IMG/VR virus record: IMGVR_UViG_3300025413_000008
Length of the DNA stretch: 58,977 bases
Source of the DNA: a virus
Lineage: Duplodnaviria; Heunggongvirae; Uroviricota; Caudoviricetes
Direction: 5' to 3' (one strand)
The number at the start of each line of letters is the position of its first letter. The stretch's first letter is position 1. Made by a program: the position numbers and the translations under genes. The notes beneath the pieces are model-generated. The model was not told where the DNA came from. It worked only from the letters and a program-made list of their open reading frames with translations, and ran no database searches. Shown in pieces: positions 4,895-50,457 of this stretch.

Positions 4895-7291
4895 TTACTT
4901 TCTAATACCTGCCAATTTCATCCAGTCACTCACTGACTCATTGATGTCTTTAGTGTTGTGTGAATGCATACGGTCATTTTGTCCTGCGATTACCGGAACA
5001 GTAGTTTGACCAGTTGATTTCTGCTTGTTTAGACCACCAGAGATGATTTTAGTCATGAAATCAATATCGGCTTCCCAATCTTCGTCATTGTTTTGACCTG
5101 CATTGTTTGCCCATTCATTGAGACTTTCTTCATCATCATCTTCTTCCTCATCGCACTCACATGGCTCAGAATGACAATCTTCACATTCTTTGTCTTCCTC
5201 AACTTCCTGTGGACCATTTTCTTCATGCTGTGACGCATCATAGTTTGCGGCTGCTGCATTTGCCGAATTGTTGCCCTTTGTAGCATTCTGTGAGTTTGCT
5301 GAACCGTTATCAGAAGGATTCTGTGGCTGAGCATTGCTCTGACCTTGTTGGTTCTGTGGTTCTTCTTCATCTTCAGCCATATTGTATGTCATCTGATCTT
5401 CTGATTCAACTTCATCCAGCTTGTCTTCTTCGCACTGACAGTGTGAAACGGGTTCACCACAGTTTTCACATTCAGCATCTTCATCTTCATAATCGTGATG
5501 ATCTGAATCACCTTGGATGCCGGAAAGTTTCTTCATCAGCCCAAGCATACCTTCATTGTCATCTACAACCTCAATATCGCCCGGTGTATTGGTTTCGCTA
5601 GATGGTGCTTGGATGCTAAAGCCCCTTGGTTCTCCGCCAAGCTCTTCGTGACTTTCGCCACCAAAGATTCCTAATCCAGCCTGCTTGATAAGCGAGATAA
5701 CTTGATCTGCCTCAGAATCAGTTGCATTAATATTTACTGAATCTGGTGAACCCTGTTGACCTTTAGAGATAGAAATAGTCATGCCTTCGTTAAGTGACTT
5801 TTTACTTGACTTTTTACCTTCGTTGATTTGCTTACCTTCATTGATTAAGTTTTCAAGGTTTTTATTCCAAGATTCAAATGCAAAATCATTTTCACCAAGG
5901 TGTGCACTATAATCAGAATTATCAGTGTAAGTTTTCCCGCCTACTGTAAACTTACCACCCTTTGGTGTTTTTGCAAGTGCGGCAGTGAAGGCATTGCCTT
6001 CTTCCATGTCGCCATACATTTCATCAAGTGTGCCAGTATATGGATCACGAATAGCCTGATCTGCCATACCATGTGTAGTTGCTGGCATATGAGGAGTCGC
6101 CATGCCGTAGCATTCGTCCATCATACCATAACATTCATCAAGACCTTCTTTATAGCCATCGTGATATGCTCTGCATTCTTCCATGTCGTCATAATTTTTA
6201 CCGGCATAAGAGTGACCCTTAAGCCCATGTGACTTACCCTCAAGACGGGCTGCTCTGATACGGTTACTCATATTTTCCTTTACTGCCTTTTTCTTTTTGT
6301 CTGATGTGGCTTTTTTCATTGACTCTTTCTTATCGCCATCTTTGTCTAAATCAAGGAAGTCTGGCTTAGCTTTTTTAGCTTCTGTCACTTCTTTTACTCT
6401 TGCATATGCAGGGGCTTTTGATTTAGGGTATTTTTTACCAATTAAATCTTTATAATTTTCTCTGTTAAAAGCATTGTCAACAACTTCGACCTGTGGTTCT
6501 TTTCCTTCAAGAGTAGTTCTACTTCTACCTGCTCCTAATGCTGCTCCCTGCGTATCAACACCTGCTACTGATGGGATATCTGCTTCCTTGACAGATTTTT
6601 CCTCAAGTTTACCTTGCTTAGCCAACTTAGCACGAACCGCGCCTGCAACACGCTCGCCCGCTGCTTTGGAGCCATATTCCTTAGCAGCCTTTTTAGCAAT
6701 CTTGGCAAAGTTCTTACCCGGCTTGCCCTCATCACGTTCAGCAAGTTTTTTATCTTGCATTTTCATCTTATGTGCGCGATCACGCTCTTGTGCCGCGATA
6801 TTTTTCATGCCATCTGCTTGTCTGCGCATATTTTTCTTTACGACCGGAACTTCATCATCTTCACTCATCGGTTGCTGACTCTGAGTTGAACTGGTTGGCA
6901 TAGTTGATTTGGTAGCGCCGCCTTGATTCTGTTGATTCTGTTGACCTTGCTGATTCTGTTGTCCGGGTTGAGTAGGAACAACAATCTGTGCTTGCTGTGG
7001 GGTCAATGAACTCAATGCAGTCTGCAATGCTTTACCAGTTGGTGATTGGTCAGTAATGTTAATAAAACCAGCACCAGTTTGTGTTTGGTCGCCCTGCTTT
7101 CCTACAACGGGAATTGGCTTCTGACCCGGAGCAAGTGCTTCATCTAATTGCTTGAACATATCTTTCAATGACATTTCTTTAGGATCAGTCTTGACTGCAG
7201 GAGCAGATTCATTTAGAACCTTTTTCTTTTTCGGAGCAGTTTTTTTAGCAGATGCTTCTAACTGGCTCATCTTGTCTAATAAGTCTTTCAT
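4895..7291 (-). CDS. Large low-complexity putative prohead core/internal head protein
   Basis: 798 aa with Gln-, Lys- and acid-rich blocks, a KPDFLDLDKDGDKKE motif, many (I/L/V)xE sites and C-terminal WMKLAGIRK. Lies in a late-promoter block. Confidence 0.5.
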   Translation of the reverse strand: MKDLLDKMSQLEASAKKTAPKKKKVLNESAPAVKTDPKEMSLKDMFKQLDEALAPGQKPIPVVGKQGDQTQTGAGFINITDQSPTGKALQTALSSLTPQQAQIVVPTQPGQQNQQGQQNQQNQGGATKSTMPTSSTQSQQPMSEDDEVPVVKKNMRRQADGMKNIAAQERDRAHKMKMQDKKLAERDEGKPGKNFAKIAKKAAKEYGSKAAGERVAGAVRAKLAKQGKLEEKSVKEADIPSVAGVDTQGAALGAGRSRTTLEGKEPQVEVVDNAFNRENYKDLIGKKYPKSKAPAYARVKEVTEAKKAKPDFLDLDKDGDKKESMKKATSDKKKKAVKENMSNRIRAARLEGKSHGLKGHSYAGKNYDDMEECRAYHDGYKEGLDECYGMMDECYGMATPHMPATTHGMADQAIRDPYTGTLDEMYGDMEEGNAFTAALAKTPKGGKFTVGGKTYTDNSDYSAHLGENDFAFESWNKNLENLINEGKQINEGKKSSKKSLNEGMTISISKGQQGSPDSVNINATDSEADQVISLIKQAGLGIFGGESHEELGGEPRGFSIQAPSSETNTPGDIEVVDDNEGMLGLMKKLSGIQGDSDHHDYEDEDAECENCGEPVSHCQCEEDKLDEVESEDQMTYNMAEDEEEPQNQQGQSNAQPQNPSDNGSANSQNATKGNNSANAAAANYDASQHEENGPQEVEEDKECEDCHSEPCECDEEEDDDEESLNEWANNAGQNNDEDWEADIDFMTKIISGGLNKQKSTGQTTVPVIAGQNDRMHSHNTKDINESVSDWMKLAGIRK

Positions 7292-15593: not shown

Positions 15594-15938
15594 ATGAGAC
15601 CTATGTGTAAATCCTGTAATAAAAATGCGTGTTCTATCAACTACACCAGACTGGGTAAAACCTATTATCGCAATAAGTGCTACCATTGCAGGAAAAACAA
15701 ACCAAGAAAAAAATCCACGGTATATCTATGGGAAAAGGCTGGATATGCAAAAAAACCGCACTGTGATTTGTGCGGTTTTAAGAGTTTGTATACCAGTCAA
15801 ATTGTGGTATTTCACATTGATGGAAATTTAGAGAACGTTTTGTTTAATAATTTGCGAAGTATTTGTCTTAATTGTGTTGAGGTGGTAAATCGTAAAGAAG
15901 TTAATTGGAAGCGTGGAGACTTACGAGTTGATCGCTGA
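15594..15938 (+). CDS. Zn-finger/HNH-like protein
   Basis: Four CxxC pairs and HIDGN..N....NL..ICLNC (HNH-like, final His absent). ATG at 15594 is 5 nt after TTAAATA. Confidence 0.6.
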   Translation: MRPMCKSCNKNACSINYTRLGKTYYRNKCYHCRKNKPRKKSTVYLWEKAGYAKKPHCDLCGFKSLYTSQIVVFHIDGNLENVLFNNLRSICLNCVEVVNRKEVNWKRGDLRVDR

Positions 15939-38844: not shown

Positions 38845-40263
38845 TTAGGATTTCTTAAGTGAATTGAGCATAGCCTTCAGTTTTGAACCTTGTGCATCGC
38901 CAATAACTCTACTACCAGATTCCTCAATCTGATTTTGAACTATTTGATTAGTGGAGCCTATTTGACTTGTTGTTTTAATTTGTTTCATAATCTGACTTGC
39001 ATTCTGCTGTGGCTTATCATCTGTATCGGGGTCTTCATCTGTTATTCTCATAGTTTCAATGTTATATTCTAAGTCAATCTTTTGACCTACACCAGTAGAA
39101 CTACGAGACTTCATACACTGAATTTGATATTTGCCACGTTCACGCATGCTTCTGCTTGTGAAAATACCAAACACATAGTCTGCTGTATTGATCTTAGAGA
39201 TACCACCAGCGATGTGGCTATGGTCAAATTCAATTTCTTCAACGGCACTACGGTTTAACTGTGACGCAGTTACCATTAGAATGCCCAACTCTTTTGCAAG
39301 ATTACGCAGTTCTTCTGATACATATTTGTCTTTGATAAACTGATCATTTGGATTGACTTTTACAGATACGGGCATAACCAAGTCAAGATAATCAATCATC
39401 ACAAAGTCAACTTTAATTCCCGTCTGAATTTGAACTTCTTTCAAATAAGAACGAATATCATTGACATTACTTTGTGCTGGCAATCCCTTAACGCGGTATT
39501 GTCCAGACTTTTTGGATACCATTTTCACCTTGAGTTCCGCAGTATCCATGTCCTTGCGAATTTCTTTAGTGCTCATGCTTGTAAGCATTGCATCGGTGCG
39601 GAGGGAAGTTAGTTCTTCCGAAAGTTCAAGAGTTATGTATACGCCGCTAAGACCCATGCTGAGCCAGTTTAATGCCATGTTCATCATGACAAGTGACTTA
39701 CCTGATCCAGAACCGCCCGCAAAAATATTTAATTCTCCGCGAGACATTCCTCCATACATGACACGATCAAGTTGTGGCCACCCAGTGCTTACTTGTCCAC
39801 CTGCATTAAAATATTTGTTAAGGCGTCCTTTAGGGTCAGCAAAATAATCTGTGCCCATATCTTTCTGTAGTGATATTTGGACCGCATCTTTAACCAATTT
39901 TTCTACTGGATTGAAATCTCCCTTTTCCAACAAATCTGCTGCCTTGAGAATGGCTCGTTCAAGTTCCTTGCGTTTGGTGAATGATTCAAATTCCTCAAGA
40001 AACCAATCATAGTGACCATCATCTAAACCGTCAATGGGGAGAATTTCTTTACCAGTAACGGCTTTTATTTGAATAGGATCGGGCATAACTGAATATTGCC
40101 CCGCATGGGTTACTATGAACTTAATCACAGGTCTAAGCGTTCTGCTAAAATTTTCGACATTTAAAATGTTTATAACTCTAGTATAAAGATTAGGATTCGT
40201 AATCATCATCCTAATGAACAATTCCTGTATCTCATCATTGAATTCTTGTATATGTGCTGTCAT
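38845..40263 (-). CDS. gp41: Replicative DNA helicase (DnaB/T4 gp41-like)
   Basis: STGWPQLD...GG, Walker A GGSGSGKS, ITLELSE, MIDYLDL, LRNLAKE, TASQLNR, KINTADYV, MKSR. ATG at 40263 follows the promoter at 40270-40298. Confidence 0.93.
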   Translation of the reverse strand: MTAHIQEFNDEIQELFIRMMITNPNLYTRVINILNVENFSRTLRPVIKFIVTHAGQYSVMPDPIQIKAVTGKEILPIDGLDDGHYDWFLEEFESFTKRKELERAILKAADLLEKGDFNPVEKLVKDAVQISLQKDMGTDYFADPKGRLNKYFNAGGQVSTGWPQLDRVMYGGMSRGELNIFAGGSGSGKSLVMMNMALNWLSMGLSGVYITLELSEELTSLRTDAMLTSMSTKEIRKDMDTAELKVKMVSKKSGQYRVKGLPAQSNVNDIRSYLKEVQIQTGIKVDFVMIDYLDLVMPVSVKVNPNDQFIKDKYVSEELRNLAKELGILMVTASQLNRSAVEEIEFDHSHIAGGISKINTADYVFGIFTSRSMRERGKYQIQCMKSRSSTGVGQKIDLEYNIETMRITDEDPDTDDKPQQNASQIMKQIKTTSQIGSTNQIVQNQIEESGSRVIGDAQGSKLKAMLNSLKKS

Positions 40264-40269
40264 CTTTTT

Positions 40270-40298
40270 ACTATACCATAATATATCTATAGCATCAA
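40270..40298 (-). promoter_or_regulatory. Sigma70-like promoter of helicase (leaderless)
   Basis: TTGATG-N17-TATAGT with extended TG; ATG 6 nt downstream. Confidence 0.65.
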
Positions 40299-40356
40299 CT
40301 ATTTTGTTAATTATCATTGCACAATGAGGATAAAATCATTATATTATGATATGAAG

Positions 40357-40427
40357 ATAAATAAAGGTGTGTAGTTCACGGGACTCCCAATCCCCAACTA
40401 CTCTAACGCTTAAGAGGAGCAATCAGC
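40357..40427 (+). promoter_or_regulatory. Late promoter and structured leader of endonuclease gene
   Basis: ATAAATA at 40357-40363, stem GTAGTT/AACTAC enclosing GGGA/TCCC, RBS GAGGAG at 40414-40419. Confidence 0.6.
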
Positions 40428-41096
40428 ATGACTATTTATTACGTATACGCATATCTGCGAAAATCCGACAACACACCATATTACATTGGTAAGGGCAGTG
40501 GTAACAGGGCATTTAGAAAACACCGTGGGTTAACTGTTCCAAAAGACAAGTCTAAAATAGTAATATTAAAGTCTGGTCTCACCGAACTGTGGGCATTAGC
40601 AATGGAACGTTGGTATATTCGTTGGTATGGTCGTAAGGACAACAACACCGGTATATTACGCAATAAAACGGATGGTGGCGATGGGGCTACGAATGTGTCT
40701 GACGAGACAAAAGCAAAAATTGGTAAAAATAGCAGCTTGGCATTATCTGGTAGAGTTAGACCTGACCTAAGCATTGCGTTAAAGGGTAACCAATGTGCAA
40801 AGGGTGCAGTAAGGACTGATGAACAGAAAGAGAATGCCCGAATCTGGAAGACCGGAAGATCAAATACTAAAATACAGAATGATCGCATAAGACAGACATT
40901 AACTGGCGTAAAACATACCGAAGAGCGTTCATTAAAAAAATCAGCATCCACAAAAGGAAGAAAGAGTCCTCTAAAAGGCGTTCCTCAAACAAAAGTAACG
41001 TGCCCGCATTGCAATAAAATTGGCGGGATGTCCAGAATGAAGGGTATACACTTTGATAAGTGTAAACTAAACCCTATCAATCTCGTTGTAGCTTAA
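40428..41096 (+). mobile_element. Free-standing GIY-YIG-type homing endonuclease with NUMOD3-like repeats
   Basis: YYVYAYLR...PYYIGKG...[24 protein letters not shown] / HTEE...KKS repeats and C-terminal CPHC. Antisense to the flanking replication genes. Confidence 0.85.
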
Positions 41097-41194
41097 TAAG
41101 AATGATGGTTATTGACGGTCAGTGTTCTTGGGGCATCAGTGACCATCATTCTAAGAAACAAGGTCTGTATATCTAAATTAAATTCTGTTATCAA
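41093..41194 (-). pseudogene. Orphaned original 5' end of the helicase gene
   Basis: TTG-started frame overlapping the primase end: MITEFNLDIQTLFLRMMVTDA then unrelated PRTLTVNNHHSY*. 12/20 identical to helicase IQEFNDEIQELFIRMMITNP. Confidence 0.75.
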
Positions 41195-42152
41195 TTCTTC
41201 TTCTCGCCATCTGAATCTTAATCTTACTGTTCGTTGCTGATTGCATTATACTTAGTAGAGTTGGTAGTCTTCCATATTTTACTATGGCATCATTTACATC
41301 TTTTATGTCATCACCCCAGTTTGGAATGCTTACTTTGAATCCAAGTTCTAATGCAGGATCACAAATTTCAAGACCAGACTTATCCTGATCTGGAACGACA
41401 ATGATCGTTCTGTTCAAATTTCGCAATATATCAACTTGCGTTTCGTTTATGGTATTTGATGTTAATGCACATCCGTTTATACTCAATGCATCAAATATGC
41501 CTTCAACAACAATACAGTATTGCCATTCTGGTTTTTGAAAATCATAACCAAACAAATACCCGACCTGTTGTTCTTTAATGAACTTTGGTGTGCGGTTATC
41601 CAAATACCGACTGGTATGTCCTACAATTTTGTTATTAAATGTGTATGGTATAATAATGCGATTACTATTTCTTCCTTCTTCATCCGGAGTTACCCTGAAC
41701 GGATAATCTTTGTAATTTATATTTCTACTTTCTAAATAATCAATGAACACTTGATGCTTAGGATTGTTACTATCAATTAATTCTGATTTTGGAAGAGCGA
41801 CTTCATCAAACTTTATCTTCTTTTTCTTCTTGACAGTGCTATATAGTTCTACTAGATTCTTTTGCTTTAAACTGTCAAAATTCCACTCATTGATTTGTGA
41901 GTCATCTATTCCAATCCAATGCAGCAGCATTTTTGTGTTACCGCTGAATTGTCTACCCAAAACAAAGCCGCATTTAAATCCGCAATTAAAGCAGTGATAT
42001 GACCAGTTGGTTCCCTCACTAAACTTTATTCCGCCGCGCATACGTTTATCAGGCTTATGCCCCCGATGATGGCAGCAGGGTGCATTCACACTTGTCCATC
42101 CACTTGATGTGTGCTTTTTTCTTCCCGGCAGTAGAGATAGAATGTCAAACAT
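41178..42152 (-). CDS. gp61: DNA primase (T4 gp61-like, Zn-ribbon + TOPRIM)
   Basis: APCC...YHCFNCG, YLESR, RIIIPY, GHTSR, IVVEGIFDALS, VPDQDKSG, KDVNDA. Confidence 0.9.
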   Translation of the reverse strand: MFDILSLLPGRKKHTSSGWTSVNAPCCHHRGHKPDKRMRGGIKFSEGTNWSYHCFNCGFKCGFVLGRQFSGNTKMLLHWIGIDDSQINEWNFDSLKQKNLVELYSTVKKKKKIKFDEVALPKSELIDSNNPKHQVFIDYLESRNINYKDYPFRVTPDEEGRNSNRIIIPYTFNNKIVGHTSRYLDNRTPKFIKEQQVGYLFGYDFQKPEWQYCIVVEGIFDALSINGCALTSNTINETQVDILRNLNRTIIVVPDQDKSGLEICDPALELGFKVSIPNWGDDIKDVNDAIVKYGRLPTLLSIMQSATNSKIKIQMARRRIDNRI

Positions 42153-42200
42153 AATCTATATTATAACAGACTTGACAGAAAAATCAAGTATTATGGTAAC

Positions 42201-49956: not shown

Positions 49957-50457
49957 TTAAAATGCTTGGCTATAGTCAACAATTTCACAATTTCTGCTTA
50001 TTTCTTTAACAAAGTATACACATCTTGGTTTTTCTCCATCATCAATTGGAACACATAAAAACTGGCCGTTTCTAAGTCTCGGGGCAAACCATGTGACATC
50101 TGGATAGATGTCTAAAATTTCAATAGGCAAGAATGACGGGGAGAAAGATGACAATGGATTAAATTCAAAAGCATTAAATCCTCTGTCATTAAGGCTTGAT
50201 AATGGAAGAGTTTCCAGATCACCGTGCTCTTGCTCACCAATTAGTATTTGCCAATCAACTGGCATTTTTATTGTCATATCACCTATCTTAAGAACTAAGG
50301 CAGGAGAACTAAATGATTCCAAAAAAATCAATGGGATGAAGTGGTAATCTACATTGGATGGAGTGGAGTTATCAAGGATTGCAAATCTAACATCATCTAC
50401 TTCATCTGGGAGATTATCTAAATTAAATTTTTCATTTTCTAATAGAAGTATGTTCAT
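49957..50457 (-). CDS. Hypothetical protein
   Basis: 166 aa, leaderless promoter TTGACA-N17-TATAGT. Confidence 0.75.
   Translation of the reverse strand: MNILLLENEKFNLDNLPDEVDDVRFAILDNSTPSNVDYHFIPLIFLESFSSPALVLKIGDMTIKMPVDWQILIGEQEHGDLETLPLSSLNDRGFNAFEFNPLSSFSPSFLPIEILDIYPDVTWFAPRLRNGQFLCVPIDDGEKPRCVYFVKEISRNCEIVDYSQAF

Follow-up and report, generated by a model that had tools for sequence, protein, structure and literature searches.

A GIY-YIG endonuclease cassette that probably entered the start of a replicative helicase gene in an uncultured jumbo phage and supplied a substitute 5' end and promoter

Free-standing homing endonucleases are not known to leave the DNA between genes except where an intron, an intein, or a tolerated split shields the host gene. 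Here we analyze a 58,977-nt stretch of DNA (IMG/VR virus record IMGVR_UViG_3300025413_000008, Caudoviricetes; "the window" below means this whole stretch), the source of which is an uncultured freshwater jumbo phage. Between its genes for DNA primase and a DnaB-like replicative helicase lies a gene for a GIY-YIG homing endonuclease in antisense orientation, and it is quite probable that a cassette carrying this gene inserted in the start of the helicase gene and itself supplied the substitute 5' end and the promoter that restored it.

The mobile open reading frames (mORFs) of fungal mitochondria make hybrid genes of atp6, atp9, cox2, and nad3 in Glomus sp. (PMC3630166) and, as cited in that source, of atp6 in Allomyces macrogynus. 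In the fungal hybrid genes the native stub is 91 to 98% identical to the relative and the inserted end 64 to 81% (PMC3630166). The window locus is like these in that an endonuclease lies inside a coding region with neither intron nor intein and carries a diverged substitute gene end, and in that the native stub is nearer to relatives than the substitute is (89.5% versus about 61% nucleotide identity). It differs in that the fungal elements replace the 3' end and their nuclease is usually in frame and cotranscribed, whereas in the window it is the 5' end that is concerned and the nuclease is antisense, and in that it resides in a phage and not in an organelle. One related locus, L025, shows the 3'-end version of the fungal pattern, for the primase gene (L numbers denote the related loci or contigs, and P numbers the homologous proteins, that were compared).

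The T4-type free-standing endonucleases, seg (GIY-YIG) and mob (HNH), spread by homing that needs no intron and that co-converts markers on either side (PMC2988022, PMC2330249). Shared with them are the enzyme class, the modular DNA-binding repeats, and a leader with a late promoter and a hairpin, an architecture known for phage endonucleases (PMC2677866, PMC2988022), as well as presence or absence at a fixed site, a target in a neighboring essential gene, and flanks that travel with the nuclease. The T4 genes are intergenic and are accompanied by no duplicated gene fragment, whereas the window copy lies 21 codons inside the helicase gene, at a site where the flanking genes overlap and leave no intergenic space. 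Endonucleases within essential phage genes are also found in split genes (Aeh1 nrdA/mobE, T4 gene 60/mobA, phage 25 gene 43, and fractured gp41; PMC2988022, PMC3045599, PMC2677866), and the fractured gp41 loci also carry a TATAAATA-hairpin leader (PMC2677866). In those cases both fragments are needed and are reassembled as proteins or through inteins, whereas the fragment in the window is redundant and the gene is restored in DNA. The T4 mobE-nrdB arrangement is similar in that a promoter beside the endonuclease secures a downstream essential gene that has been cut from its operon (PMC2988022), but there the gene served by a middle promoter has the same orientation as the endonuclease and a normal leader, whereas the window promoter abuts the ATG and faces away from an antisense nuclease. 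A full-text literature search found no description of 5'-end replacement together with a promoter in a phage. The principle is thus known from fungal mitochondria; what is added here is a hot spot with multiple arrangements, matched empty and occupied alleles, and the link to a leaderless promoter.

The primase-helicase junction and its empty alleles

In the part of the window studied, all replication genes are on the minus strand and the nuclease open reading frame (ORF) is on the opposite one. Read along the minus strand, the order is primase, a 33-codon ORF starting with TTG, the antisense nuclease, and a complete helicase. The primase (positions 41178 to 42152; 324 amino acids; Pfam Toprim_2, PHROG 47 DNA primase) is 56 to 77% identical to the primases of relatives, 77% being the best value in a search for the closest relative. 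The 33-codon ORF (41194 to 41093) starts 17 nt before the primase stop codon ends (41178) and opens with a native helicase 5' stub of TTG plus 20 codons (41133 to 41194, minus strand). Its frame then crosses 36 nt of filler (41097 to 41132) as 12 unrelated codons and stops at 41093 to 41095, one TTAA (41093 to 41096) being common to the stop codons of this ORF and of the nuclease gene (40428 to 41096, plus strand; 222 amino acids). The helicase (38845 to 40263, minus strand; 472 amino acids from the ATG at 40263) is recognized by Pfam DnaB_C (3e-21) and PHROG 19 (3.6e-73). A first-pass annotation of the window, made from the letters alone, had described a TTG frame over the primase stop, an antisense nuclease, an intact helicase, and a promoter before it, and each of these lies where it had been placed. 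The same annotation had called the helicase gene split; since the helicase is complete, the gene is not split, and its 5' end is duplicated instead.

Relatives of the helicase number in the hundreds and lie on contigs, up to 524 kb long, of uncultured freshwater phages; among the cultured phages of INPHARED no close relative was found, the best helicase DNA match being 69.7% over 10% of the query, in PA5oct-like jumbo phages. Nothing interrupts the junction in 76 of the 80 viral contigs or in another 50 metagenome loci where it is complete (approximately 126 in all), and these are the empty alleles with a contiguous helicase that had been predicted. In them the primase stop codon overlaps a TTG or ATG helicase start with the same 17-nt geometry as in the window stub, and the primase and DnaB-like helicase of the relatives are translationally coupled through this overlap. 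Relative to these alleles the insertion point falls after helicase codon 21, and the homology of the window to about 25 of them stops at 41132 to 41139, where the stub ends.

The stub (residues 2 to 21) matches residues 5 to 24 of the window helicase at 12 of 20 positions, as the first-pass annotation had stated, and the DNA is diverged (41 of 60 nucleotides, longest identical run 6 nt). It is matched at 17 of 20 residues (counted from the sequences) and 89.5% of nucleotides by L025 (positions 4965 to 5059), the closest relative, and at 15 of 20 residues, counted in the same way, by the L155-type helicase start. Two outcomes that would have spoken against an insertion, a stub that does not align to helicase N termini and endonuclease-free relatives that carry both N-terminal copies, did not appear: a motif scan found two copies in the window only, among 85 related loci and 65 more loci with complete junctions. 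L155 (ENA series ERZ272718xx-ERZ272719xx), with its stub-like N terminus, was considered as a closer empty relative and was set aside, being overall no closer than L025.

A continuation of native helicase codons 22 to 35 into the filler was not significant in comparisons with nine relatives (p of 0.02 to 0.96), so the stub is taken to end at 41133; nor does the filler have significant similarity to the 3' flank of cassettes in which the nuclease gene is in sense orientation. A 17-bp inverted repeat (arms 41099 to 41115 and 41136 to 41152, 15 of 17 positions complementary) pairs the filler with stub codons 15 to 20 and ranks 6th of 15 local inverted repeats in the 59 kb; it could be a repair scar or, equally, a retained RNA 3' structure between convergent genes. 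The proposal of an insertion at about codon 21 with neither intron nor intein is supported: a scan of 39900 to 41400 against Rfam (E up to 1) gave no intron match, an intein is impossible because the nuclease gene is antisense to the helicase, and the helicase N terminus is already full.

Putative substitute 5' end, promoter, and leader

Compared with L025, codons 90 to 400 of the window helicase are 84.1% identical in nucleotides and 97.4% in amino acids, and codons 5 to 75 are 60.6% and 67.6% identical, a nucleotide value lower than in any of 922 control pairs whose helicase bodies are about as similar. In a maximum chi-square scan the breakpoint falls at codon 85 (approximately position 40011), with a mismatch of 39% upstream and 16% downstream, and none of 300 permutations was as extreme. 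The nonsynonymous divergence (dN) is 0.33 over about 70 codons upstream and 0.018 in the helicase body. The native stub is closer to L025 than the working 5' end is (89.5% versus 60.6% of nucleotides). Given this abnormal divergence, codons 1 to 84 (40012 to 40263, minus strand) look replaced. The first-pass annotation had proposed a recoded 5' gene end, which the breakpoint at codon 85 supports; the diverged tract is about 84 codons long, not about 24. The sharp breakpoint and the high dN favor import of the substitute terminus.

The helicase promoter (40270 to 40298, minus strand) consists of TTGATG (40298 to 40293), 17 nt with a TG before the −10 hexamer, and TATAGT (40275 to 40270), which ends 6 nt before the ATG at 40263. 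It had been claimed in the first pass, and its geometry gains weight from three comparisons. At the aligned position, L013 has TTGAAG-N17-TATAAT-6 nt-ATG, with the hexamers conserved and the spacer diverged. The native primase promoter of the window reads TTGATT-16 nt-TATAAT-7 nt-ATG (42160 to 42187, minus strand), and 13 of 13 relatives that were compared share its −35 hexamer TTGATT, with an extended −10 hexamer and a gap of 5 to 7 nt to the primase start (ATG; GTG in L074). Among the 2,468 ATGs of the window, 7 have a promoter of this geometry, and 5 of the 7 are ORF starts (Fisher p of 6e-4), at 50457, 42152, 40263, and 33657 on the minus strand and, more weakly, at 15603 on the plus strand. 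As judged from these sequence comparisons, the helicase promoter appears credible.

No Shine-Dalgarno sequence precedes either 40263 or 40317. With 6 to 7 nt from the −10 hexamer to the ATG and no Shine-Dalgarno sequence, a leaderless start is predicted, and transcription of the helicase should begin at the A of the ATG at 40263; the geometry of the native primase promoter likewise predicts a leaderless mRNA. At all five of these starts the −10 hexamer of a sigma-70-like promoter ends 6 to 7 nt before the ATG and a Shine-Dalgarno sequence is lacking, which suggests that leaderless mRNAs are a routine feature of early genes in this phage family.

Between the helicase promoter and the nuclease leader is a spacer of approximately 48 nt (40307 to 40355), which is absent from L013 in the alignment. 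It creates an in-frame upstream ATG at 40317 that is used by gene callers, which disagree on the helicase start and give products of 490 or 454 amino acids from the same DNA. The spacer also contains a weak plus-strand promoter-like match, TGCACA-N16-TATATT.

The nuclease leader (40356 to 40427, plus strand) contains ATAAATA (40357 to 40363), which resembles a late promoter, the stem GTAGTT/AACTAC, and a GAGGAG ribosome-binding site. This leader of approximately 70 nt stands before nuclease genes at more than 50 other loci (L081 to L137) with about 75 to 86% nucleotide identity, one being lower, and the homology often extends over the first part of the nuclease gene. In L025 it stands before the HNH gene, and in L013 before the decayed nuclease. 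The nucleases that follow this conserved leader DNA vary in their DNA-binding domains and even in catalytic family (GIY-YIG or HNH). An outward sigma-70-like promoter stands beside the leader in other gene contexts as well (L083, L121, L160, L162, L165, and L176/L181); in a survey such promoters were recurrent, not universal, and the regular expression used for late promoters missed many loci. Because promoter and leader are common to cassettes in other phages, at least that part of the cassette appears to be mobile.

The nuclease, its probable target, and a hot spot for endonucleases

The 222-residue protein is matched by PHROG 314 and 655, both labeled "homing endonuclease," and across 30 family members Y5/Y7/Y9, Y18-Y19-G21, R27, E60, and N79 are invariant. 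A family profile search matched the GIY-YIG structure 9u75 (E of 0.006). In an AlphaFold2 (AF2) model, residues 1 to 60 have block-mean predicted local distance difference test (pLDDT) values of 88 to 95, and the top 10 Foldseek matches of this model are all GIY-YIG proteins (PD-T4-3, UvrC N-domain), with I-TevI at rank 12 and E values of at least 0.07. These matches support the antisense GIY-YIG gene that the first-pass annotation had recognized. The DNA-binding module NUMOD3 is weak in the window protein (E of 0.047) and clear in the homologues P0060 (2e-13) and P0064 (1e-10), and a C-terminal CxxC...H...C (zinc) cluster is nearly invariant in the family.

The three closest clusters of nuclease homologues, at 64 to 67% amino acid identity, are all located at the primase-helicase junction (L006, L149 to L152, L214, L215, and three further contigs). 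In these clusters the nuclease gene is in sense orientation, there is no stub, and the nuclease stop codon overlaps the helicase ATG. One conserved site is thus occupied in the window and in three clusters and empty in approximately 126 relatives. The helicase from an occupied allele, P0043, differs from P0014 at 8 of 468 residues, all within residues 6 to 22, and P0014 belongs to an empty allele in which the upstream gene overlaps the helicase by 17 nt. A second helicase from a sense-type occupied allele, P0042, also differs from P0014 at 8 residues, 7 of them within residues 6 to 22. This recoded tract probably marks the recognition or cleavage region of the nuclease, and the window stub ends at its 3' edge, at codon 21. 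The differences at residues 6 to 22 provide a candidate map of the target and of immunity changes. At nucleotides of codons 5 to 45 that are conserved in at least 90% of sequences, the window and L006 have 6 mismatches each, and 59 nonredundant empty alleles have a mean of 0.66 and a maximum of 4. Taken together, the sequence comparisons point to probable cleavage near helicase codon 21. The 3' flank of the window nuclease was also examined as a possible relic of an inverted sense-type cassette, and the similarity was not significant (p of 0.3 to 0.65).

The primase-helicase junction holds at least four endonuclease arrangements: a sense GIY-YIG gene, an antisense GIY-YIG gene with a stub, a decayed antisense cassette, and an antisense HNH gene with a primase stub. 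The last of these, in L025 (4212 to 5000) and also in L218, has an antisense HNH gene (HNH_3, 2.3e-13) with a leader of the same family in the 3' end of the primase gene. The primase of L025 has a substitute C terminus, and the native last 14 or so primase codons form a stub before the native helicase, with a promoter-like TTGCAT-N17-TAAGAT spanning the cassette edge; L025 is the mirror image of the window cassette. In L013 (2913 to 3290), a 378-nt block stands in place of 20 nt of the empty L213 (2482 to 2501), and there is no stub. Within the block the final 12 codons of the primase are recoded and the helicase starts with ATG in place of TTG, and its decayed antisense nuclease ORF retains only one DNA-binding repeat, which is common to the HNH protein of L025. 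In L013 the leader and promoter persist though the nuclease domain is gone.

Other sequences have also been found at this position. L068 (4493 to 4993) and L249 have a sense ORF for a 166-residue cupin-domain protein at the same junction in another lineage, and in the distant relatives L275 to L295, where the primase is 37 to 39% identical, 1.1 to 2.2 kb of other sequence lies between primase and helicase.

Origin of the arrangement and its significance

We consider it quite probable that a free-standing GIY-YIG lineage targets the first 20 to 25 codons of the helicase gene and that its cassette in the window comprises four parts, namely the nuclease gene, the leader with its late promoter, an outward sigma-70-type promoter, and a helicase 5' end of approximately 84 codons. 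The substitute end would restore the helicase, which would be expressed from its own promoter, probably as a leaderless mRNA beginning at the ATG, and it would also alter the presumed target sequence. Of the original helicase gene start, the first 21 codons would be left as a nonfunctional stub that has kept its coupling to the primase. As the flanking genes overlap and offer no neutral insertion point, some recoding or duplication is unavoidable, and as it is the 5' end that is replaced, a promoter and a start codon must be supplied. By bringing a spare gene end and a promoter, the cassette could sit inside an essential replication gene.

Since this nuclease lineage usually lies cleanly between the two genes, the stub is best seen as the by-product of one untidy event rather than as the usual way in which the element inserts. 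Only tentatively can a course be proposed for it, in which the helicase-side end of a break copied a donor with a clean antisense cassette, such as that of L013, and the new strand was then joined to the primase-side end without homology. A double-strand break near codon 21 would have been followed by invasion of the donor by the helicase-side end only, and copying would have run through the substitute 5' end and the promoter to the leader and the nuclease gene; joining of the new strand to the unresected primase-side end would have left the stub and the 36-nt filler. The inverted copy of stub codons 15 to 20 in the filler (15 of 17 positions) resembles snap-back templated synthesis at an end-joining scar. 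One-sided copying followed by end joining would explain the position of the stub edge at the presumed target, the filler, and the inverted copy.

Several points weigh against the insertion of a cassette with an imported gene end. No donor for codons 1 to 84 was found among 5.8 billion proteins, 80 viral contigs, and 80 metagenome loci, the next-best N terminus in a region-restricted search of the same proteins having 66 to 68% amino acid identity; on this account import from a foreign donor is better supported but unproven, and the absence of a donor may also fit rapid divergence of the helicase 5' end in place. Synonymous sites are saturated even in the helicase body (synonymous divergence [dS] of 1.75), and an attempt to date the event from dS was rejected for this reason. 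The helicase promoter matches the hexamers at 9 of 12 positions, which is common in DNA as AT rich as this. The Pfam GIY-YIG model PF01541 does not match the window nuclease, and the putative GIY-YIG assignment is drawn from motifs and from weak profile and fold scores. L013 was rejected as evidence for recoding of the target, since its unusual N-terminal residues are identical in the empty L213.

Divergence in place is the core of one alternative, in which the lineage doubled its own helicase 5' end, with the nuclease either arriving between the copies or bringing the duplication about, and the working copy then diverged fast to escape cleavage, with no import at all. The failure to find a donor-like N terminus in any database searched agrees with this, as do the clustered substitutions that nuclease-linked alleles carry in the target block. 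Against this, the divergence extends to codon 84 and ends in a sharp step to 16% mismatch, far beyond the 17-codon recoded tract of the sense-type allele; point mutation would hardly raise dN to 0.33 over 70 codons of an essential protein whose body stays at 0.018; and cassettes in other phages have the promoter and leader in common with the window. We consider such a duplication quite unlikely. A further possibility concerns the stub rather than the helicase and is compatible with the cassette explanation of origin: stub and hairpin may have been retained for a function, whether to terminate or stabilize the convergent primase and nuclease transcripts, to finish translation after the primase, or to encode a 33-residue peptide resembling the N terminus of the helicase. 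In favor of this, the 17-bp stem folds strongly (−28.6 kcal/mol as plus-strand RNA, z of −5.0; −20.7 kcal/mol as minus-strand RNA) and lies exactly between the convergent genes, both of its mismatches are G-U pairs on the nuclease transcript, the TTG start is kept in the native coupling position, and the locus is invariant across samples. However, no T-tract or U-tract follows the stem on either strand and a terminator scan was empty, the placement of both G-U pairs on one strand has a chance of about 1 in 4, the invariance is that of a single haplotype, and there is no stub in the clean cassettes of L013 and L006, so that a retained function appears unlikely.

It is very improbable that the gene works in pieces, with splicing, protein splicing, or ribosomal bypass connecting the stub to the downstream gene or with the stub peptide assembling with the helicase. 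There are phage precedents for such genes in Aeh1 nrdA/mobE, T4 gene 60/mobA, and the split-intein gp41 helicases (PMC2988022, PMC2677866). In the window, however, the downstream gene already encodes a full N terminus homologous to the stub, so that the 20 codons after the stub TTG are duplicated there and the two fragments are not both nonredundant, as they would be in a gene in pieces; Rfam detects no intron, the nuclease ORF in between is read from the other strand, and the stub frame runs through 12 junk codons to a stop. A chimera of two phage strains, assembled at the helicase 5' end, might be suspected given the metagenomic origin of the window and a junction in conserved, repeated-looking sequence. 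Its probability is negligible: 3.4 kb at the locus is 100% identical over each covered span in six contigs, the longest of 278,938 bp, from different samples in three independent collections (ENA, Logan, and JGI), which excludes an assembly artifact, and the two copies, with identical runs of at most 6 nt, offer an assembler no place to jump from one to the other. Among these six contigs there was no population variation in the stub.

Beyond the window itself, the cassette explanation can be extended, though with less than even confidence, to the antisense cassettes of the whole family, which may be three-part modules (a leader, an exchangeable GIY-YIG or HNH nuclease, and an outward early promoter) that uncouple and rewire the operon. 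By landing in the overlap, such a module would uncouple the two genes, and the helicase would become independently transcribed and leaderless; gene ends would be recoded as needed, at the 5' end of the helicase in the window and at the 3' end of the primase in L025 and L013. Because the host gene would then depend on the cassette promoter, the skeleton would be kept after decay of the nuclease, as in L013. If this is true, these modules act as a ratchet through which operons are reorganized by selfish elements.

For annotation, the stub and the upstream ATG at 40317 are of practical use as examples of features that mislead gene callers. The hot spot, together with its many empty alleles, forms a natural series in which the cut site, the reach of co-conversion, and the reshaping of an operon from translational coupling to separate leaderless transcripts can be followed. 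A cassette that brings its own gene end and promoter would represent another route by which a homing endonuclease can enter an essential replication gene in a phage.

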